A DNA stretch of 64,000 nucleotides, taken from the NCBI GenBank assembly GCA_031291995.1, contig JARLHZ010000039.1, positions 18,380 through 82,379 on the forward strand. Direction: 5' to 3'. The position numbers were made by a program, and so were the translations under genes. The DNA is from Candidatus Doudnabacteria bacterium (GTDB lineage Bacteria > Patescibacteriota > Doudnabacteria > UBA920). Under the pieces are notes generated by a model that had not been told where the DNA came from, made no database searches, and was given only the letters and a program-made list of their open reading frames with translations. Below, one piece after another: positions 1-20,756 of the stretch; position 1 is the first letter of the stretch; each line of letters starts with the position of its first letter.

Positions 1-366
1 TTCCCGTTAATGGGATCAGAAATTGTTCCTACAACAATAATATCTCCAACATTGACTTCCTGTAATTTAGCATCGGACAGAGTGTCCTGGTAATCAACTT
101 CCACGCTCTGACCCTTTTCCGCACCGTCAAGCAGGGTCACTTGCAAAGTCTCGGTAATTTGCGACAGATGTTTATTCTGTTCCTCATTCTTATCCTTGAC
201 CTCGGTGACTTTTCCTTTGGCCAGTTCATTAAAAGACGTGTTGCCAGCCTCAGCGGCATCGGCGGCAAAACTTTGAGTATTGGTAGTAGGCGACTTTTCT
301 ATTTTATACCAGCCAAAGGCTAGGGCGGCGGCAACCACCAGTATGAAAATTGTGAGATATCTTTTC
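1..366 (-). CDS. hypothetical secreted/membrane-anchored protein (3'-truncated by window start; start codon at 366)
   Basis: Reverse-complement of 1..366 opens with ATG and encodes MKRYLTIFILVVAAALAFGW... (N-terminal hydrophobic signal/anchor) and continues in frame to the window edge. Not in the ORF track because there is no stop inside the window. Confidence 0.5.
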
Positions 367-405
367 ATTCTGTAATTTTATCACCCTTTGGCCTAGCCGG
401 CCATT

Positions 406-1242
406 TTAAGTATGGTGATGGGTTAGCTCCGGCAACTTATGCGGCACTATCCTATGGACAAGGCCGACCGTGATAAAGTAAGTTAAACCAGCCAGGCTGG
501 CTATATAGAAGCTGATGGGAAAAAGGGTGGCCAAAGCGAGTAGCAAGCCGCCCCAGGTGAAAACCAATCCCAATACTACTGAAAACAAAATCCCGTAAAG
601 CGGCCGTTTGGTTAAATGCTGAGCCGTGGCCGCAGGTGCGATTAACAGGGCGAAGACTAAAAGCACTCCTATAACCTGAATTGATTCAGCGACTGTGACA
701 GCCAAGATTAACATAAAAATAATCCCGAGCAGTTTTACCGGCACACCCCGGGCTTCGGCGACTTCGGGGTCTATGGACATAAACAACAACGGCCGGAACA
801 AAAACGACAATATGGCTAAAATTACGGCACTAAAAATTAAAGTAAGCCAGACATCGACCCTGGTCACGCTTAAAATAGAACCAAATAAGACTCCAACAGC
901 CTCCGTGGCTCCTCTGGTATAAAGGCGCAAAAAAAGCACTCCTAGACCTAAAGCAAAAGACAACACCATGCCTATTTCCACGTCACGGCCTTTTAGCCTG
1001 CCCTCCAAAGCGCCTATGCCTAATGCCGCCAATACAGTAAACCCAACCATCCCCAGTAAAGAGCTGATACCTAATAAAGCCGCGCCCGTGGCTCCTGCAA
1101 AGCCGATACAAGACAGCGACTCTGCGGCAAATGCCTGCGCGCGCAAAACGACAAAATATCCAACCACGCCGGTAATAATGGCAATAACCGTACCAGCCAA
1201 GAATGCATTTTGAATAAAAGGCTGCTGAAATAATTCAATCAT
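406..1242 (-). CDS. metal (Zn/Mn) ABC transporter permease, ABC-3 family
   Basis: 278-aa polytopic membrane protein with ZnuB/MntD-like profile. 4-bp ATGA overlap with the second permease. C-terminal HHHT. Confidence 0.8.
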   Translation of the reverse strand: MIELFQQPFIQNAFLAGTVIAIITGVVGYFVVLRAQAFAAESLSCIGFAGATGAALLGISSLLGMVGFTVLAALGIGALEGRLKGRDVEIGMVLSFALGLGVLFLRLYTRGATEAVGVLFGSILSVTRVDVWLTLIFSAVILAILSFLFRPLLFMSIDPEVAEARGVPVKLLGIIFMLILAVTVAESIQVIGVLLVFALLIAPAATAQHLTKRPLYGILFSVVLGLVFTWGGLLLALATLFPISFYIASLAGLTYFITVGLVHRIVPHKLPELTHHHT

Positions 1243-2078
1243 ACAACAGCCCTTTCCGCCCGTTGTTTTTGGGTTGAAAATAATCTTACCGGCAAATAAA
1301 CCGCAAACGATAAAGCGGCAATATAAAAACTTACCGGCCAGCTTCCGTTGGCGGCCAATAGTATACCAAGCCAGCTATAAATTAAACCCAAAACGATGGC
1401 CACGGCGATGGCTTTTTTAGGATCCTGCGCCAGACGCATGGCGGTAGCGGCCGGACCAACCAATAAAGTAAAAATTAAGAGTACGCCAACTACCTGCACA
1501 GCCATAGAAACCGTGATAGCCACAAGAATTAGAAAAATCAAGCCTAGCGTACGTACCGGAACACCGCGCGCTTGTGCCACTTCAGGGTCGAAAGAAGAAA
1601 ATAATAACGGTCGGTAGATTGCAGTCATCCCTGCCAAGGTAATCGCACTAAATATGGCAGTAATAAGAATATCCATTCTGCTGATTCCCAAAATCGTGCC
1701 AAACAAAATACTGTAAGCGCGCTCCGCGTACCCTGTGTAAAGGGAAATGAATAAGGCCCCAAGCCCTAAAATAAAAGCTAAAAAAATACCAATAGTCACA
1801 TCCCGCTCATTAAGTCTGCGTCCAAAGATTGCAATTCCAACAGCGCCTAAAATTGTAAATACCAGAAGACCAAATACCGGATCTACACCCGTTACCAGAG
1901 CGGCGGCGGCTCCGGCGAAGCCGACGTGTGACAAGGCATGTCCGGCGAACGTTAAGCCCCGAGCCAGCAAGAAATAACCGACCACGGCGGCAACAATAGC
2001 CACTAACGAAGCGGCAAATAAAGCATTTTGTAAAAACTGATAATGGAATAACAGAAACATAGGTTTAAGTCTCCGCAC
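1239..2078 (-). CDS. metal ABC transporter permease, ABC-3 family (second permease)
   Basis: 279-aa paralogue of the downstream permease. Overlaps the ATPase gene end, so operonic. Confidence 0.8.
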   Translation of the reverse strand: MRRLKPMFLLFHYQFLQNALFAASLVAIVAAVVGYFLLARGLTFAGHALSHVGFAGAAAALVTGVDPVFGLLVFTILGAVGIAIFGRRLNERDVTIGIFLAFILGLGALFISLYTGYAERAYSILFGTILGISRMDILITAIFSAITLAGMTAIYRPLLFSSFDPEVAQARGVPVRTLGLIFLILVAITVSMAVQVVGVLLIFTLLVGPAATAMRLAQDPKKAIAVAIVLGLIYSWLGILLAANGSWPVSFYIAALSFAVYLPVRLFSTQKQRAERAVV

Positions 2079-2838
2079 CTACGATAAAGACTCTATTGCC
2101 GCTTTTAACTACTTCTACCGAAGTCCCATAGAGCTTGCTTAGTGATTCGTTAGTTATAACTTCATCGGGTTTGCCCATAGCGCCATGACCCCGCGCCAAA
2201 AACAGCACGCGGTCAATGAAAGGCAAGAGCGGGTTAACATCATGTGTCACCAGCAAGATGGTAATATGTTTTTCCCGCGTCAGCTTAACAGCCAGAGCCA
2301 CAATGTCTTGGCTGTGCTGAATATCCAGATTTGAAAGCGGTTCGTCTAAGAGTAGAATTTTAGGGTTGGTAATCATAGCCTGGGCTATAAGCAAGCGCTG
2401 TTGCTCGCCGCCTGATAGTTGGCCCATGGATGAATCGGCCAAATGTAAGGCGTCAACTTCTTTTAAGGCTTGATTGATAATCTCAGTTCGGCGCTGGCTT
2501 GGCCAGCCAACGCCCCACTTGTTGCCATCTAAACCAAAACCCACCACGTCCCTGGCGCGCAGGGCCACATCGGTTTCCAGCACCCGGTGCTGTGGCGCGT
2601 AGCCAATTTGCGAATTGCCGCGTCGCGGAACATTACCCAAGACTCTGACATCGCCACAATCGGGTTTGAGCAATCCTAATAAAATCTTAAATAAAGTGCT
2701 TTTGCCGGCTCCATTTGGGCCAAGGACTGCCACGAATTCTCCGTTATTAACCGAAACGTTTATGTCGTGCAAAATCGTGCGACCGCCCAGGCTGACGCAA
2801 ATATTATCTAATGAAATTACAGGTTCGTTTATATCCAT
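2065..2838 (-). CDS. metal ABC transporter ATP-binding protein
   Basis: Walker A GPNGAGKST, ABC signature LSGGEQQR, Walker B LLLDEP. Confidence 0.88.
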   Translation of the reverse strand: MDINEPVISLDNICVSLGGRTILHDINVSVNNGEFVAVLGPNGAGKSTLFKILLGLLKPDCGDVRVLGNVPRRGNSQIGYAPQHRVLETDVALRARDVVGFGLDGNKWGVGWPSQRRTEIINQALKEVDALHLADSSMGQLSGGEQQRLLIAQAMITNPKILLLDEPLSNLDIQHSQDIVALAVKLTREKHITILLVTHDVNPLLPFIDRVLFLARGHGAMGKPDEVITNESLSKLYGTSVEVVKSGNRVFIVGAET

Positions 2839-2842
2839 ATTG

Positions 2843-3787
2843 TTATTTTACCACTTGCTGTAAACTTTGTTCCAAGTCATTTAACTGCCCAAGCATCCAG
2901 CTTTGGTAAGTCTTGTCTTGCGGCATAGTTTCGGAAACCTGAACCACAGGAATACCCAACTGCTTGGCCATGTTTTGTAGGTTAGTGGTTATGGGAGTGA
3001 CAGTTTGGTTGTTATAGATCAAAACTTTAATCTGCTTATTTTGCACCTGCTGGTTGGTGGTTTTAACATCCGCCACGGATGGATCGTTGCCTTCGGCCAG
3101 AGCCTTTTCAAAGTTATAAGGGGTAAGTACATTTAAACTCATCGCTTGAGTCTGATAAAGATAGATGGTTTCCGTAAGCCCCACTGGCGTGTTTTGGTAT
3201 TTGGATTTTATTTCGTCTATTTTTTGCAATAATGGACTCAAGGAATTGTTAAATGTTTGGAGGTTGTTGTTAAAAGTTGACAAGTCGGCTGGATCAGCTT
3301 TCTTTAGCGCAGAGGTAATTGCATTGGCAATGCTGGCCATATTATCTATTCCATACCAAATGTGTGGGTTATCCGGCAAAGGATGAGCCGCGATTTGCCC
3401 TGCTATCAAGACCTGCCGGCTGCTGTTTGGCGAGGCTGACAATAATTTATCCATCCAAGTATCGTATTCAAGCCCGTTTTCCAGAACAATATCGGCCTGA
3501 CTGACTGCCACCGCGTCCGGCACGCTGGATTCATACTCATGTGGGTCAGCGTTCGGATCGGAGAGTATGCTGGTAACGGAAACATGCTCGCCGCCTAATT
3601 GTTTAACCACGTCACCGTAAAAGTTTTCAGCAGCTACGACTTTTACCACAGACGAACTTTTGGCTTGGTTATTAGCGTTAGTAGATTGCTGCGGAGTATT
3701 AGAATGTATATTAACTTTAATTATATAACCGAGAACCGCAATAAAAATTATGCCTAAAATGAAACCTAAAATCTTTTTATTATTCAT
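2843..3787 (-). CDS. metal-binding periplasmic-type substrate-binding protein (ZnuA/TroA cluster A-I), N-terminally membrane anchored
   Basis: N-terminal TM anchor. NPHIWY and DPHEYE His-containing motifs typical of the TroA/ZnuA family. 4-bp gap to the ATPase gene. Confidence 0.8.
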   Translation of the reverse strand: MNNKKILGFILGIIFIAVLGYIIKVNIHSNTPQQSTNANNQAKSSSVVKVVAAENFYGDVVKQLGGEHVSVTSILSDPNADPHEYESSVPDAVAVSQADIVLENGLEYDTWMDKLLSASPNSSRQVLIAGQIAAHPLPDNPHIWYGIDNMASIANAITSALKKADPADLSTFNNNLQTFNNSLSPLLQKIDEIKSKYQNTPVGLTETIYLYQTQAMSLNVLTPYNFEKALAEGNDPSVADVKTTNQQVQNKQIKVLIYNNQTVTPITTNLQNMAKQLGIPVVQVSETMPQDKTYQSWMLGQLNDLEQSLQQVVK

Positions 3788-3790
3788 ATT

Positions 3791-5089
3791 TTAATTGTTA
3801 ATTGTTAAATTATTTAAAGTTGATGAAGCACTGCTGGATGTGTCCGGAGTTATCGTTATCAAAGCAGGAGGCATTGTTGTGGGGTCGACTGCTGGCGGAG
3901 TAGAACTGGAAACATCTGATGCTGCGGGCAAATCTTCAACGGTTGTAGTGGAATTATTAGTTTGTGGTGTCTGAGCAGGAACGGTTGCTGGCTGTCTTTG
4001 GCTAACAGCCATTACATCGGGACACTTGCCGGGCTGCGACTGCAAAACATTGTTGGCCGAGAAAATACAAACCGGTAGCTTGGTTACGGTATCATAGATA
4101 GTGATACCTGCTGGCTGGTCAAGCGATCCAACCTCTAGCTGCTTAGTTTGAACCATATCGGCAATCAAACTCTCGACCTTTATAAAACCCTGCGCAATAC
4201 TTACTCCCAAACTTTTTAAGCCATCCAATATCCATGAAATATCGAGCATTGCGGATATTTTGGCATCCAGTCCCTGAATACCGGCCAGCGCCACACCAGC
4301 GGGGTCTATCGTAGAAATAGAACTACTACTGTTGCCAAGGCCGAAGGCTGTATAAAAATCTTCTGCAACCGGACCTATATGCACAATGTCCGAATTCTCT
4401 GTTTTATAATTCCAAGTATAGATGGGCAAACTATCAATCTTGGTTAAAATATTATCTGGGGTTATGGTGGCAAAATTTTCTTTTAATTCTTTACTGGAAG
4501 CATTCGTCCAGCTATAACCGTCAAAGTTTGCGATTGAAACCGGGGATTCTATGGTGGCAACGTTTAAGTTAGCCATAGTAGTGGAAGCGGTAAAATTTGC
4601 GTTGCCAGAAAATGATGCGCTGCCTTCGTTTGTAAATGCTCCGGTGCTGTCCAAGTCCCCGGTGTTAACGCTATTGACCGTGATGTTGTCGCCGGAAAGG
4701 TTGGTAGCAGCCAAAAAAGTTTGTTGGTTTGCGGCCGATACTGCTCCCGGAATGTAGACCTGCTGGAAGTCGGAAGAGTTGGGGTCGACTGAGGCCAGGG
4801 TTGGAAAAGAAGAAGTGTCTCCTTTGTCGCCCTTTTCTCCTTTTAGCAAACCCTGTGATACCATTTTATTTACCATATCTGTTACTAAGCTGGTAATGTA
4901 GGCATCGCTGACGGTGTAACTGCCTAAAACCTGTGGTTTTGTCAGACTGACTACCAGAGCCTTTTTATTACCATAAGCTAAGTAACGGTTGTTACTAAAA
5001 GCTAAGGCTCGGCTGGTATTTAGCGCAAAGATTAAAAACGCCAAAAAAACTGTAACTATTGGTATTTGCTTTGAAGGAGGCTTCGCCAT
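3791..5089 (-). CDS. membrane-anchored fibre-like protein with a short collagen-like Gly-X-Y stretch and a peptidase-S74 / intramolecular-chaperone (tail-fibre/endosialidase C-terminal) domain
   Basis: N-terminal TM. GEKGDKGDT triplets. SSKELKENF...DSLPIYTWNYKTE..DIVHIGPVAEDF...DPAGVALAGIQGL matches the SDxRLKxNI...auto-chaperone module of phage tail fibres. S/T/P-rich C-terminus. Stop is 3 bp from the SBP gene start. Confidence 0.7.
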   Translation of the reverse strand: MAKPPSKQIPIVTVFLAFLIFALNTSRALAFSNNRYLAYGNKKALVVSLTKPQVLGSYTVSDAYITSLVTDMVNKMVSQGLLKGEKGDKGDTSSFPTLASVDPNSSDFQQVYIPGAVSAANQQTFLAATNLSGDNITVNSVNTGDLDSTGAFTNEGSASFSGNANFTASTTMANLNVATIESPVSIANFDGYSWTNASSKELKENFATITPDNILTKIDSLPIYTWNYKTENSDIVHIGPVAEDFYTAFGLGNSSSSISTIDPAGVALAGIQGLDAKISAMLDISWILDGLKSLGVSIAQGFIKVESLIADMVQTKQLEVGSLDQPAGITIYDTVTKLPVCIFSANNVLQSQPGKCPDVMAVSQRQPATVPAQTPQTNNSTTTVEDLPAASDVSSSTPPAVDPTTMPPALITITPDTSSSASSTLNNLTINN

Positions 5090-5240
5090 GTTGTTAATAG
5101 TTAATTATCTGTTGAGTTTTAGGAAAGGCGTTTGGCCTGAAAGCAATAAGAACCAAACGCCTTATAACTGGATATTAATGCAAGTCGTTTGCGTTTGTCA
5201 AGTTATTGCAAATAGATTGCGTTTATGCTAATATGCGCTT

Positions 5241-5666
5241 ATGAATAAACCCTGTAACCAGCATATTGCCGAATCCAAAGAACAGCTAAAGGCCGGCAGT
5301 TTAAAAATAACCTCCGCTCGTTTAACTTTGCTCGATATACTAAAGCACGCCAAAAAACCTCTCAGCATAAAAGAGATCTCCCTACGTTTGGGGGAGGTAG
5401 ATTTAGTTACTTTATATAGGAATGTGGAGTCTCTTCAGAATTTAGGAATAGTAAAACAGATTAACTTAAAAGACCGCCAGGCTTATTACGAGCTGTCGGG
5501 CGGCGAGCACCATCACCACCTTATTTGCACCAACTGCGGCAAGCTGGAAGACGTGCAGGTGGAGGAAATAAAGTTAAACAAAACTTTTCTTAAAAACCAC
5601 GGCTTTGCCAAGGTCACGGATCATAGTTTGGAGTTTTTCGGTATCTGTAAAAATTGCGACCGATAA
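5241..5666 (+). CDS. zur: Fur-family metalloregulator (probably Zur)
   Basis: 141 aa with HHHHLICTNCG...CKNCD metal-binding motifs and an N-terminal winged helix. Divergent from the znu-like operon. Confidence 0.75.
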   Translation: MNKPCNQHIAESKEQLKAGSLKITSARLTLLDILKHAKKPLSIKEISLRLGEVDLVTLYRNVESLQNLGIVKQINLKDRQAYYELSGGEHHHHLICTNCGKLEDVQVEEIKLNKTFLKNHGFAKVTDHSLEFFGICKNCDR

Positions 5667-6270: not shown

Positions 6271-6579
6271 ATGCGTACCGATAAACAAATAATTCAAATT
6301 CGCAAAGAGCTTAAAGACGGTACTGAACAAAGAGTAATTTTTAAGATCCTCGCCGACACTAACCGTTACCGTATTTTTGAAATGTTGGGCAAACAGCCCC
6401 AACTTACCGTCAGCGACATGGCCAGAGTTCTTAAAATATCCCTACCCCTTGCCTCCCAGCACCTTAAGACTTTAGAGCGCGGTGGCCTCCTGCAAAAAGA
6501 AAAACGAGGCCAAAAAGTTTACTACGGACTCAGAACCGATAACCGGATTGCCCAGGCTATTACTAAAACCATTATATGA
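6271..6579 (+). CDS. ArsR/SmtB-family metal-responsive transcriptional regulator
   Basis: RIFEMLGKQPQLTVSDMARVLKISLPLASQHLKTLERGGLL is a canonical ArsR HTH. Confidence 0.8.
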   Translation: MRTDKQIIQIRKELKDGTEQRVIFKILADTNRYRIFEMLGKQPQLTVSDMARVLKISLPLASQHLKTLERGGLLQKEKRGQKVYYGLRTDNRIAQAITKTII

Positions 6580-7199
6580 AAAAAATCATTATTGTTTTAT
6601 CGGCAATATTCTCACTGGCCGCCGGCTGCCAGAGCGCTATTGTCACTCAAACTCCGCCGGCAAAACCAGGAGCCTGCACCCTGGAAGCCAAACAGTGCCC
6701 GGATGGCTCTTATGTTGGCCGCAGCGGCCCTAACTGCGAGTTTGCGGCCTGTCCTGAACCGAAAGCGACAACTACTCCTACTCAACCACCGTCTCCGGTA
6801 GTCTGCCCACAAATTGCCTTGGCCTGCCCGGACGGCAGCTATGTTAAACCGGAAGGACCAAATTGCAAAATCCCTGACTGCCCGACCCTAACCAGCGGCA
6901 TAGAGGGAAAAATTACCCTAGGCCCGACTTGCCCAGTAGAACGAATGCCGCCAGATCCTAACTGTGCAGACAAACCTTATCAGGCTATGGTAATAGTTAA
7001 AACCGCAGACGGGCAAAAAGAAATTACGCGCTTTACTTCCCAAACCGATGGTACGTTCAAACAAGCCTTAAAGCCAGGCACGTATTTGCTGGTGTCGGTA
7101 AGCGCTCAAGTCTATCCACGGGGCGTACAGCAAACCGTGATAGTGAACGCAAATACCTTCAGCCAGGTTACAATTAGCTATGATACTGGGATAAGGTAA
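6576..7199 (+). CDS. Cys-rich lipoprotein
   Basis: Lipobox LAAGC. Three repeats CPDGSYV..GPNC..(A/D)CP. 14 Cys in ~120 aa, then a beta-rich C-terminal domain. ATGA overlap with the ArsR gene. Confidence 0.7.
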   Translation: MKKIIIVLSAIFSLAAGCQSAIVTQTPPAKPGACTLEAKQCPDGSYVGRSGPNCEFAACPEPKATTTPTQPPSPVVCPQIALACPDGSYVKPEGPNCKIPDCPTLTSGIEGKITLGPTCPVERMPPDPNCADKPYQAMVIVKTADGQKEITRFTSQTDGTFKQALKPGTYLLVSVSAQVYPRGVQQTVIVNANTFSQVTISYDTGIR

Positions 7200-17345: not shown

Positions 17346-20300
17346 ATGCCATCAACTTTGTTACAATCAGAAAGTTCTCTTGAGGGTCATAGGGAATCAG
17401 CTCAAATGCCGGAGGCGCAAAGTCCAGAAATATCGGACCACGACGAGGCAAGTTTGCGGAGAATGGTTGATCAGGCAACAGCAGAAATCTCCTCGGTCCA
17501 GGCAAGAATAGATGCTATCTCTGAGGATCGTTTGCAGAAAGCCTCATCGGGCCTGGCCCCGGAAAGGGCGGGCCGTATATTTTCGACCGGTGGTTTTGCT
17601 GACCGGATAAGTAAAGTCAAAAAGGAAATTTCGGATTTAATAAATCGTACAAAGAGCCAAATTGGTGTATTGCTTAAGCCTTCATCGGAAATTGAAACCC
17701 GACAATCAAAAAATGAACCAGACTCCGACTCTGAACATAAAGCCGCGTCTCCCCAAAGTTTGGAGCATTATATGGAAGCAAACAAGCTTGGCGGAATGGA
17801 AACGGTGAAGGAAAAAGCCCGTCTCGCGCAGTTGCGCTTACAAAGGATAAAGAATCCGGAAAAGGTTTTGGCTTTGGCTCATTATTTGGAACAATTCTCT
17901 GTAAACACGGAATTTAAAAATCTCAAGATTTCAAAGAATGAACGAAAAAAAATCGAAGAAGAGGAGGGGAAGTTAAAAAAACAAGGATTTAATATCAGGG
18001 GTCGGTATACTGATGATGAAGAAGAAGACAAGGTGAAACTATGGGCAACCAAGGAATCTCCATATTCATTTAACACCCACGATTCAAAATTTCTTGCCAA
18101 AGACCTTGCTGAAATGGTTAGCTCGCCAAACGATCCGGTTAGGATGTTTGAATCCTTGCGCAATCTCGGATACCACCTTGAGATTATTAAAAACTGGACG
18201 TTCCATGACAACGATAAGCTGAAAGAGTTTTTTAAAAATCCCGGTGCGTTGGCATTTTTGGAAAAGGTAAAAACGTTCGGGGGAGAGGGGCTTAAGAAGG
18301 ATCTTTTTAAGGGCTATGACCCAATACTCAGACTTTCGGAATTGGCTACTAAAGATTCTGCCGAGCATATTTTTACTCCGGAGTCGGAAAAAAATTTGGA
18401 GAAGGTCTCCGCAATATTGGGTAAGCCCGTGGAATTTGCCGATGTCGAAGATTGGATTGAACTCTCCCGGGGAGACACCCTAATGGAAATTTTTTCCACG
18501 TTGAAAAAGATGCCGGGCAGTGACATTTCCACTAGTGACTGGTTAAATAAACTGCACATAATTAAGGAGAGAGGTGTGGAAAATGAGGTTGTGGAGCTTT
18601 TGAAAAAAGGGTTTTCCGAACGAATGCTTGGGAAATTTTATGGCTATGGTCCGGTTGAAGGCGAAAAGGCCACCGAATCTCTAAAGCAAGCCCTAGAAGT
18701 TTTTAAATCCAACCCGCAATTACAAAAATTCGTGCTTGGGGCGGCAAAAATCTTTGGAATTGAAGATCCGTTAGGGAAAGAGAATCTGGAAAAATTTTGC
18801 AAATTGGAAGAACAAGTTCCGGAAGCCGGGCTGGCATTTGAGTTTTTGTTGGGGATTGGGTTAAAAGGCCAGCCATATGAGTTGCGTGAATTTTTTGGTG
18901 AGCCGGAAATTTTCTTCAGAAATAGGAAATTATTTCAGCGGATGGAGCAACCGCAGGTTAGGCAAGTTATTACTTTGCTGGCAGAATCCGGGCATGAGTT
19001 AAAAATGGATACCTTGTCAGCCGACTTTTATAAAGTGGATATTATTATCGCCGGTGGATTAACTGAGGCTGTGGCGCGATGTAAAGATTTTCCGGGAATG
19101 GCTGATTTTATTATCGGTCACGCGGAGCTTATTAAGGATATTACCAAAAAAGAACTTGCGGAATATCTAAATCAAATTTTATCAGGCAGTGAATCGAAAT
19201 CTATCAGGGACAGGCAGATGGTCCGCGGGGAAATGATGGGTACAGTTTTATCTCAAGGCAGATATGACGTGCTTGCTAAAGTCCTATCAGCCAAGGGAGA
19301 GCTTACCCCAGAGCATACGGAAATAGCTGAACGTGTGGAAAAATTTGTCGATACTTACAAAATTGGAAACAAAGGCCGTACCATAGTCACATTGCTGGCA
19401 ATGAGGGAATATCGCGAAGGTGAAAATTTGGGTGGTTTATTGGAAAGAATCGGTAAAACCTTGGTGGGTTATCAAAAATTATTGGAACAAAAATCGGCGC
19501 ATCATATTCCAGCGGGGCTTCGGGCCTCTATTGGAATGGAATATGAAATAACCAACAGCACAGCTCAAGCGTATTTAAACTCCAATAAGAATTTTTTGGA
19601 GAATGATATGCAGGATGTTTCCCGTTTTGCCGGCGTGGGAAAAGGCAAGGATGCGGTTTTTGAAATCGCAACAAAATCCACTGATAACCCCTACGCAATG
19701 CTTTTGGAGTTGCAGTTGTTGCAGGATTTGGAGTTTATTGATTTTAATTTTAGACGGGAAGGCTATGAAAAAGGTAGCCGCGGTTGTCATATAACAGTTG
19801 GAGGTGAACATGGGCTCAAAACAAATAATAATGCCAATTTTTTACAAAACACTTTAATGATGAGCGGCTGGGGCGGTATTAATGCTGGCCGAAAGGTAGA
19901 GCAGCTGAGCAAAGCGAGAAATGCAAATATTCGCCAGCGCGATACATACAGCACCCAAAAGGTATTTGAAAATTGCCGGCCAGCGGTGGAATTTAGGTCT
20001 TTATCCCTGGACACGTGGGAGCCCTTTGAGCGGACAGTGGAAACTTCCTATTACGGTGCGATAGCGGTTCAGGCTATGGATAAATATTTGTCGGGCTTAA
20101 AGCCGGCGGTGTTTTTCCAAAATTTTGAGACGCAATTTCCGAGGGGCGCGGAAGGCTTGGTCTCAATGCTAAAGGATGCAGGGATGGTTTCTCCCGATTT
20201 AAAGGACGAAAAAACGAAACAAATTATTTTTTTGTGGATGAAGCTGCAGGCAGGAGTATATGGCGCTTTGCAGGATCATAATGAGAATTTTTTGAACAAC

Positions 20301-20756
20301 GAAACGGGCGGTTATTTTGACGAAGATGGAAAATGGATAGATCCGAATGATTTTGGCGGTAATACGAATAAGGAGCGGTTTTTGGCGGTCAGCGGAGGCG
20401 AACAGGGGCTGCAGTCTTATAGTGAAAGTGTTAAAATTTCCCCCGCTGACCTTTTTGAGACCGCGACCGAGGGGCTGGCAAATCGTTGCACAGCCATAAC
20501 CAATCTTTTCATAAAACCGTCCTTAGAATCCGGCGGTGACGTAACAAATGCTACGGCTAGTTTTGATACGACTAAAATCGGTCGAACCATTGAAAGTAGT
20601 GACACTCGGGCCAAATACCAATCTGTTTTTGAGGCCAAAGGGCAGACGAGGGAAGGGTATTATTATATTCAAGGGGGGAGTCAGAAAATGCTCCTTCATC
20701 GAATTCAGATAGAACTTTTGGAGTTTAATAAAGCTATGCAAAAAATAATAGAATAA
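17346..20756 (+). CDS. large (1136 aa) cytoplasmic protein of unknown function; C-terminal third may have an amidoligase/GS-like fold
   Basis: No signal peptide and an acidic, coiled-coil N-terminus. Motifs SIGMEYEIT ... VFEIATKST ... RGCHITVGGEHG resemble the E-x-E / H-x-H-containing strands of COOH-NH2 ligases. This is weak and unverified. Confidence 0.6.
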   Translation: MPSTLLQSESSLEGHRESAQMPEAQSPEISDHDEASLRRMVDQATAEISSVQARIDAISEDRLQKASSGLAPERAGRIFSTGGFADRISKVKKEISDLINRTKSQIGVLLKPSSEIETRQSKNEPDSDSEHKAASPQSLEHYMEANKLGGMETVKEKARLAQLRLQRIKNPEKVLALAHYLEQFSVNTEFKNLKISKNERKKIEEEEGKLKKQGFNIRGRYTDDEEEDKVKLWATKESPYSFNTHDSKFLAKDLAEMVSSPNDPVRMFESLRNLGYHLEIIKNWTFHDNDKLKEFFKNPGALAFLEKVKTFGGEGLKKDLFKGYDPILRLSELATKDSAEHIFTPESEKNLEKVSAILGKPVEFADVEDWIELSRGDTLMEIFSTLKKMPGSDISTSDWLNKLHIIKERGVENEVVELLKKGFSERMLGKFYGYGPVEGEKATESLKQALEVFKSNPQLQKFVLGAAKIFGIEDPLGKENLEKFCKLEEQVPEAGLAFEFLLGIGLKGQPYELREFFGEPEIFFRNRKLFQRMEQPQVRQVITLLAESGHELKMDTLSADFYKVDIIIAGGLTEAVARCKDFPGMADFIIGHAELIKDITKKELAEYLNQILSGSESKSIRDRQMVRGEMMGTVLSQGRYDVLAKVLSAKGELTPEHTEIAERVEKFVDTYKIGNKGRTIVTLLAMREYREGENLGGLLERIGKTLVGYQKLLEQKSAHHIPAGLRASIGMEYEITNSTAQAYLNSNKNFLENDMQDVSRFAGVGKGKDAVFEIATKSTDNPYAMLLELQLLQDLEFIDFNFRREGYEKGSRGCHITVGGEHGLKTNNNANFLQNTLMMSGWGGINAGRKVEQLSKARNANIRQRDTYSTQKVFENCRPAVEFRSLSLDTWEPFERTVETSYYGAIAVQAMDKYLSGLKPAVFFQNFETQFPRGAEGLVSMLKDAGMVSPDLKDEKTKQIIFLWMKLQAGVYGALQDHNENFLNNETGGYFDEDGKWIDPNDFGGNTNKERFLAVSGGEQGLQSYSESVKISPADLFETATEGLANRCTAITNLFIKPSLESGGDVTNATASFDTTKIGRTIESSDTRAKYQSVFEAKGQTREGYYYIQGGSQKMLLHRIQIELLEFNKAMQKIIE

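Follow-up and report, generated by a model that had tools for sequence, protein, structure and literature searches.

A predicted self-cleaving fibre protein linked to zinc importers and a Zur-type operator in Doudnabacteria and related Patescibacteria

Why should a protein that resembles a phage tail fibre be encoded among the genes of a metal-uptake operon? The question is raised by a stretch of 64,000 nucleotides from contig JARLHZ010000039.1 of a Candidatus Doudnabacteria bacterium (assembly GCA_031291995.1), to which we refer as the window. Here, a minus-strand gene, the product of which we call the fibre, lies between the gene of a ZnuA-family substrate-binding protein (SBP) and a divergently oriented gene for a Fur-family regulator (Table 1). 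The NCBI record for exactly this protein (MDR3643384.1) is annotated only as "tail fiber domain-containing protein". According to an initial annotation of the window, the gene belongs to a metal-uptake operon in the genome of a cell, and this placement is borne out by the ZnuA, ABC_tran, two ABC-3 and Fur genes around it as well as by the comparison of loci described below. The reading that we favour, and hold to be reasonably probable, is that the fibre is a Sec-exported, phage-fibre-like protein, encoded promoter-proximally in a Zur-type repressed zinc-acquisition operon of a small Patescibacteria clade that comprises Doudnabacteria and relatives.

We compared loci that encode homologues, using the contigs of nine homologues that were looked up and GTDB species genomes that were scanned with the family alignment. 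All loci were searched with the transporter and regulator proteins of the window, and Pfam was run where needed. Counting the window, the family comprises 16 distinct loci, with proteins of about 350-445 residues that share 31-79% identity. A zinc importer is encoded at all 16 of them, ZnuABC at 11 and the unrelated transporter ZIP at the other five. ZnuA adjoins the fibre gene in the 11 loci, mostly directly downstream on the same strand (it is divergent in L007), and the gaps between fibre and importer genes measure 1-22 bp in most loci. At L013, L014, L015, L092 and L094, which are without ZnuABC, a ZIP gene (PF02535, E-values down to 1e-40) is adjacent to the fibre gene or one gene off. 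Genes of the Fur family are found at 14 of the 16 loci, and YibE/F genes at 11 (the window, L002, L003, L006, L008, L012, L014, L015, L019, L092 and L094). As controls we used 75 loci outside the family that share the S74 domain only, from other lineages of the Candidate Phyla Radiation (CPR), Bacteroidota, Zixibacteria, Lysobacterales and Planctomycetota; none of the 75 has a ZnuA, Fur, ZIP or YibE/F gene within ~6 kb.

The linkage survives several rearrangements. The Fur gene may precede or follow the operon, ZnuA may be divergent (L007), ZIP may replace the ABC transporter, and further genes may be inserted. Between L002 and the window, the fibre proteins are 49% and the Fur proteins 48% identical, the ZnuA proteins only 25%. 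Because fibre and Fur are better conserved than the transporter, regulator and fibre appear to be the stable core of the arrangement, around which the importer is exchanged. The frequent presence of YibE/F (PF07907) makes this membrane protein a candidate for an unrecognised component of zinc or metal homeostasis.

The family loci also have a regulatory sequence in common. Their upstream regions share a 19-bp palindrome, AATGCAA-N5-TTGCATT, with the 7-1-7 core TGCAAAT-n-ATTTGCA, which precedes the operon in 12 of 13 family loci that were scanned. When up to two mismatches are allowed, the 192 kb of family loci contain 22 matches at operon starts, nine of which are perfect, and the 754 kb of control loci contain three, all of them imperfect. 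The intergenic spacer between the fibre and Fur genes of the window (5090..5240), in which the initial annotation had anticipated a Zur box, holds two copies of this conserved operator, and these are interleaved with a sigma-70-like promoter (Table 1). The same layout, TTGACA...box...TAAnAT, recurs in L001, L002 and L006. The box appears to differ in sequence from the Fur, PerR and Zur boxes of Bacillus.

The identity of the operator is suggested by its distribution in metagenomes. Scanning metagenome contigs for the perfect box, AATGCAAATSATTTGCATT, yielded at least 120 loci (L095-L214), which among the matches listed come from organisms with GC contents of 0.24-0.70. In 75 of the 120, ZnuA, ABC, Fur, ZIP or YibE/F-like genes lie within 5 kb. 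Adjacent to the box in the remaining listed loci are three more ZnuA genes (one with a long His-rich loop), one ZIP gene and two CobW/COG0523 GTPase genes, along with genes for a TonB-dependent receptor, two ArsP_2 permeases and an IucA/IucC siderophore enzyme. Zur regulons are characterised by ZnuABC, ZIP and COG0523 genes, and since these adjoin the box, the palindrome is best read as a widespread Zur-type operator, to which binding of the regulator is predicted. The widespread box can be defined as AATGCAAAT-S-ATTTGCATT. An S74 gene is found at none of the 120 listed loci, so that the addition of the fibre to the Zur regulon appears to be specific to the clade.

The fibre gene itself is closely packed against the importer genes. 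Its TAA stop codon (3793..3791) is followed by AAT and then by the ATG of the ZnuA-family gene (3787), leaving the 3-bp gap on the same strand that had been noted at the outset, and no minus-strand terminator is predicted between the two genes. From the spacing and the missing terminator we infer that the fibre and SBP genes are co-transcribed. The leader contains a hairpin, and L001 and L002, the two loci closest to the window, are the only others with a comparable one. Lacking a T-tract, the hairpin does not readily pass for a terminator, and a search of the leader against Rfam gave no riboswitch or other match.

What kind of protein heads the operon? The initial annotation had recognised a C-terminal tail-fibre module of the S74 or intramolecular chaperone (ICA) type from three motifs, SSKELKENF, IYTWNYK and IGPVAEDF, all of which are present and nearly invariant in 22 homologues. 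The Pfam hidden Markov model Peptidase_S74 (PF13884) matches residues 198-249 with its positions 1-53 (E 3.7e-10; 40.4 bits at a cutoff of 22), and PF13884 is also the precomputed family-wide annotation of the homologues. Among the 22 family members that we aligned (alignment A1), A197, S198, L202 and K203 are invariant; nor do S198 and K203 vary among 70 other cellular S74 domains. The spacing Ser198-x4-Lys203 is that of the catalytic dyads S911/K916 of endoNF and S587/K592 of MyRF, in which cleavage takes place N-terminal to the Ser (PMC8326128). The predicted fold of the domain matches all four solved ICA domains. These were recovered by fold comparison alone; profile searches of PDB sequences, run with the family alignment and with an S74 sub-alignment (A2), returned no ICA structures. 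NCBIfam holds no model for the protein, and tail-fibre families of PHROG cover residues 92-280. Since profile match, catalytic residues and predicted fold agree, we assign the fibre to the S74/ICA family, and self-cleavage and trimerisation are predicted for it.

The collagen repeat of the initial annotation fares less well. Three G-X-Y triplets, GEKGDKGDT, are indeed present, and the Pfam Collagen model (PF01391) does not match the fibre of the window at E <= 0.01. Relatives have two to five triplets or none, and weak, sub-threshold Collagen matches are limited to P0047 and an unrelated protein of L017. With only three triplets and no profile match, we rejected a description of the fibre as a collagen-repeat protein.

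The alignment of the 22 members reveals a common order of segments. A signal peptide and a poorly conserved linker are followed by an amphipathic helix (residues 62-78 in the AlphaFold2 (AF2) model), zero to five G-X-Y triplets, a Ser/Thr/Asn/Gly-rich stalk of ~100 residues, the S74 domain, helices, a two-Cys beta module and a tail rich in Pro, Thr and Ser. Mean pairwise identity is highest in the S74 domain (0.66) and the Cys module (0.56), lower in the stalk (0.35) and lowest in the tail (0.15), and among the ordered parts conservation is weakest in the first 57 residues (21-29% identity). Searched against 1.84 billion representatives, the N-terminal stalk (residues 31-197) gave 15 matches at E <= 1e-3, nearly all of them to S74 proteins of 330-440 residues; it thus appears to be rare and family-specific. 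A stalk-like region that resembles the N-terminal part of the family is also seen at residues 81-216 of P0044, a protein of 954 residues with its S74 domain at residues 747-800.

By inspection, the N-terminus of the fibre consists of a Lys-rich n-region, a 15-residue h-region and an A-L-A site followed by Phe, and AxA-type cleavage sites come after the hydrophobic segment in nearly all homologues. On account of these sites the segment looks like a cleavable Sec signal peptide rather than the membrane anchor originally proposed, which overstated the case.

The likeness to phage ICA proteins (the endosialidase endoNF, the L-shaped tail fibre of T5, the GA-1 neck appendage and K5 lyase) extends to the S74 profile, the Ser-x4-Lys dyad and the predicted fold, and to the fibre-like stalk before the ICA domain, which matches tail-fibre PHROGs. 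Unlike these proteins, the fibre belongs to a cellular genome without phage genes, and has a probable Sec signal peptide and a Zur-type operator. Its stalk is very short (~140 residues) and carries no enzymatic or receptor-binding head, and its ICA domain is not C-terminal, but is followed by the two-Cys beta module and the low-complexity tail. In phages, the best matches extend over 19-27% of the protein, all within residues 186-300, at 34-40% identity. S74 domains are moreover common in cellular genomes, with 395 relatives among GTDB species representatives. The domestication of a fibre that the initial annotation suggested is therefore unsupported as a recent event.

As known contexts of ICA domains, the paper on MyRF lists only four phage families and MyRF itself (PMC8326128). 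MyRF, the myelin regulatory factor, is a eukaryotic co-option of the domain, a transcription factor of the endoplasmic reticulum membrane from which cleavage frees a DNA-binding trimer. In contrast, the fibre has neither a DNA-binding domain nor a C-terminal transmembrane segment, and is extracellular by prediction. By analogy, its assembly and cleavage would work like those of the phage modules and MyRF. The operon, in turn, is similar to Zur-regulated ZnuABC/AdcABC operons in its ZnuA, ATPase, ABC-3 permeases, Fur-family regulator and 7-1-7-type box over the promoter, and differs from them in that the fibre gene is the first cistron, that there are two permease genes and that a YibE/F gene trails. 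In the literature searched, no description came up of an S74/ICA protein that belongs to a zinc regulon or to a CPR bacterium, nor anything relevant on tail fibres with ZnuA, CPR Zur regulons or YibE with zinc.

We hypothesize the following sequence of events. When zinc is scarce, the repressor would leave the two boxes, and the operon would be transcribed. The fibre protein would be exported and its signal peptide removed, after which the ICA domain would drive trimerisation of the coiled-coil, short collagen-like and beta-stalk region (residues ~58-197). A self-inflicted cut between Ala197 and Ser198 would then yield a stable fibre of three chains, each of ~17 kDa, and release a C-terminal fragment. 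The outcome would be a starvation-induced surface or secreted fibre that acts outside the cell, upstream of import; such a place of action is the most likely one, given that the importer is interchangeable and that the protein contains almost no His or Cys. Because its partner may be ZnuABC of two types or ZIP, we consider it unlikely that the fibre forms part of one particular transporter as a subunit. Possible roles are attachment to a metal-supplying host cell or substrate, or an envelope structure. The earlier suggestion of a surface structure under Zur control thus stands in part: a Zur-type operator over the promoter and the conserved linkage to importers speak for the control, while the extracellular role is one that we infer.

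A number of observations weigh against this proposal. The favoured role in extracellular attachment or in the envelope is one that we advance with low confidence. No LPXTG motif, C-terminal transmembrane segment or other recognisable anchor was found by which the fibre would be retained on the cell, and the full-length AF2 monomer, modelled from the 22-sequence alignment, is poor and unusable (pLDDT 44). A promoter-like match, TTAACA-18-AATAAT (3779-3808, minus strand; 10 of 12 positions), reaches from the last bases of the fibre gene into the first of the SBP gene; weak, AT-rich and possibly due to chance, it could nevertheless allow transcription of the SBP gene independently of the fibre. 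The nature of the metal also invites caution. The Fur-family regulator of the window scores below every cutoff of the NCBIfam equivalogs, so that Zur and Fur/Mur cannot be told apart by sequence. Compared with AztC (5kzj), the SBP has His, His and Glu at the ligand positions and then Val in place of the usual Asp, and Glu at the third position is Mn/Fe-like. Two Nramp genes stand beside the box among the metagenome matches listed. In view of the unassigned regulator, the SBP ligands and the Nramp genes, the metal could in some lineages be Mn or Fe instead of zinc.

Alternative explanations need to be considered as well. Accessory proteins in zinc-import operons controlled by Zur or AdcR are usually scavengers or metallochaperones; examples from zinc import are the streptococcal Pht (polyhistidine triad) proteins with AdcAII/Lmb, ZinT, AztD, and the fungal Pra1 beside the ZIP transporter Zrt1. 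In the same manner, the fibre or its released C-terminal fragment might bind zinc outside the cell and hand it to the importer. Like these proteins, it is predicted to be secreted or placed on the surface, its gene adjoins that of a zinc importer, with which it would be co-regulated, and its pairing with ZIP recalls that of Pra1 and Zrt1. Linkage to two unrelated importers would fit a general supplier, and C341 and C356 of the secreted fibre are near-invariant among the 22 members. However, the 432 residues include one His and two Cys, and residues 31-197, which make up the mature stalk, contain no His, Cys, acidic cluster or other metal ligand conserved among the aligned members. Neither a His-triad nor a His-rich stretch nor any other conserved His/Cys/Asp/Glu metal motif was found by which the fibre could be recognised as a zinc-binding accessory protein, and its fold class, a trimeric self-cleaving fibre, is a different one. 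The Cys module also occurs in CPR S74 proteins that are not linked to metal genes (matches reach q~360 in L010 and L021-L034). A family-specific metal site formed by H237, E243, D244 and D262 of the ICA domain was considered and rejected, because the same residues are invariant in the 70 S74 domains from unrelated, non-metal-linked contexts. Direct zinc capture is therefore unlikely, as there are so few His and Cys residues and the conserved polar residues are generic to S74, and we regard a scavenger or metallochaperone as an unlikely explanation.

Slightly less credible is a membrane-tethered variant, in which an uncleaved signal anchor would keep the stalk trimer by the transporter and the shed ICA half might be active or signalling. 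This was the initial annotation's own reading of the N-terminus. A single hydrophobic helix (residues 11-22) in the AF2 model is compatible with it, and in MyRF, ICA cleavage parts a membrane-bound from a free portion (PMC8326128). The AxA-type sites of the homologues and the low conservation of the N-terminal 57 residues argue against such an anchor.

It is rather improbable that the fibre is a zinc-sparing substitute, a metal-free structure that replaces a zinc-requiring one on the surface when zinc is limiting. Zur regulons classically include zinc-independent paralogues, as with the zinc-free ribosomal proteins, and the fibre has hardly any His or Cys. Numerous S74 paralogues may occur within a single CPR genome, as in one Minisyncoccia metagenome-assembled genome with at least eight such loci. 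On the other hand, no zinc-dependent counterpart was identified: the fibre is the sole S74 open reading frame (ORF) in the window, and Doudnabacteria genomes appear once each among the best 80 S74 loci of the GTDB scan.

Very improbable, finally, is a passenger gene, a phage tail-fibre relic that landed in the operon without a role in metal homeostasis: S74 is typical of phage fibres, and matches in PHROG and phage databases exist, but the linkage is kept at every family locus down to 31% identity and through several rearrangements, catalytic dyad and stalk are conserved, the GC content of the gene (0.443) is similar to that of its neighbours, no phage genes flank it, and phage similarity is restricted to the segment given above. 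A prophage origin was rejected on similar grounds, with genes for metal transport, regulation and housekeeping as neighbours, native GC content and weak similarity to phage proteins. Pfam annotation of the window proteins revealed no phage genes near the fibre gene. The window is cellular, with genes for RNase J, UvrA, UvrC and four tRNAs, plus a set of large surface proteins.

The features of the locus are compiled in Table 1. Because the ZnuA-family SBP has no lipobox Cys, it is probably held by its N-terminal helix.

Table 1. Features of the fibre operon and its surroundings; coordinates refer to the window except in the last row, where they refer to the loci named.
Feature	Residues	Position	Strand	Details
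YibE/F-family membrane protein gene, 5' part, cut by window edge		1..368	(-)	ATG at 368; tblastn 48% identity to aa 1-119 of L012 YibE_F
ABC-3 permease 2		406..1242	(-)	Pfam ABC-3, E 1.3e-48
ABC-3 permease 1		1239..2078	(-)	Pfam ABC-3, E 1.3e-53
ABC transporter ATPase		2065..2838	(-)	Pfam ABC_tran, E 3.7e-32
ZnuA-family SBP		2843..3787	(-)	Pfam ZnuA, E 9e-48; N-terminal transmembrane/signal segment, no lipobox Cys
Fibre gene	1-432	3791..5089	(-)	ORF, 432 aa
Non-conserved Pro/Thr/Ser tail	358-432	3794-4018	(-)
Two-Cys beta module	318-357	4019-4138	(-)
S74/ICA domain	198-~317	4139-4498	(-)
Predicted cleavage site	between A197 and S198	4496-4498	(-)	Ser codon
Family-specific stalk	91-197	4499-4819	(-)
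Helix and three G-X-Y triplets	58-90	4820-4918	(-)
Signal peptide	1-30	5000-5089	(-)
Leader hairpin		5125..5163	(-)	5' untranslated region; perfect 11-bp inverted repeat, 17-nt loop; dG -17.9 kcal/mol, z -3.6
Sigma-70-like promoter, TTGACA-18-TAATAT		5172..5201	(-)	10/12 consensus positions; -35 TTGACA 5201-5196, -10 TAATAT 5177-5172
Operator box 1, AATGCAAGTCGTTTGCGTT		5177..5195		between -35 and -10 hexamers; 1 mismatch to consensus
Operator box 2, ATTGCAAATAGATTGCGTT		5205..5223		just upstream of -35 hexamer; 2 mismatches to AATGCAA-N5-TTGCATT
Fur-family (Zur-like) regulator		5241..5666	(+)	141 aa; Pfam FUR, E 6e-24; divergent from fibre operon
Secreted protein of ~160-210 aa		L012 4539-5081; L013 4637-5164; L014 4560-5189; L006 5267-5833; L094 3871-4353

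Several family loci encode an additional secreted protein of ~160-210 residues, which has no Pfam family and lies between the Fur and fibre genes, right after the operator box. Two of these proteins have GCHxDGAxIHC at their C-terminus, which may be a metal site. At four loci (L012, L013, L014 and L015), the gene of the secreted protein is followed by one for a class I S-adenosylmethionine methyltransferase in the same box-controlled unit. Neither gene is present in the window.

Elsewhere in the window (6271-7199, plus strand), the gene of an ArsR-family regulator overlaps with the beginning of another gene. The product of the latter is a lipoprotein-like protein of 207 residues, in which Cys motifs recur (CPDGSYV...GPNC...C) and CarboxypepD_reg is matched weakly. 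Located two genes from the Fur gene, the two may be another metal-related pair. A one-strand run of very large predicted surface proteins (34495-60730, plus strand) includes a SpaA-like prealbumin fold, a Lamin-tail domain, a YDG/MBG-repeat protein of 1402 residues, a PG_binding_1 protein and a protein with both DUF11 and VWA. An ORF of 1136 codons (17346-20756) has no Pfam match.

The gene carried a generic NCBI annotation before, and the S74/ICA family is established; what is new is the conserved linkage of a family of S74 fibres with a Fur-family gene and a zinc importer. Phage fibres and a single eukaryotic transcription factor are the settings in which ICA/S74 domains are understood, whereas many homologues in cellular bacteria are without assigned biology. 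The fibre family gives one cellular S74 group a clear regulatory and genomic context. In addition, YibE/F and the secreted protein of ~180 residues are flagged as candidate new members of zinc regulons.

The comparison of loci gave a strong signal that had not been expected, and suggests that the fibre is a hitherto undescribed aid in acquiring metal outside the cell. We speculate, more tentatively than for the reading set out at the beginning, that in episymbiotic CPR bacteria a self-cleaving trimeric fibre induced by zinc starvation may represent a class of accessory factor that is new to metal acquisition. It might, for instance, attach the starved cell to a host or particle as a source of zinc, or be a protein scaffold that feeds any importer present. 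If this were true, YibE/F would belong to that system too, as another component not recognised so far. The surface biology and nutrient piracy of CPR/Patescibacteria are poorly known, and the fibre is nominated here as a surface structure that these organisms may induce upon starvation.

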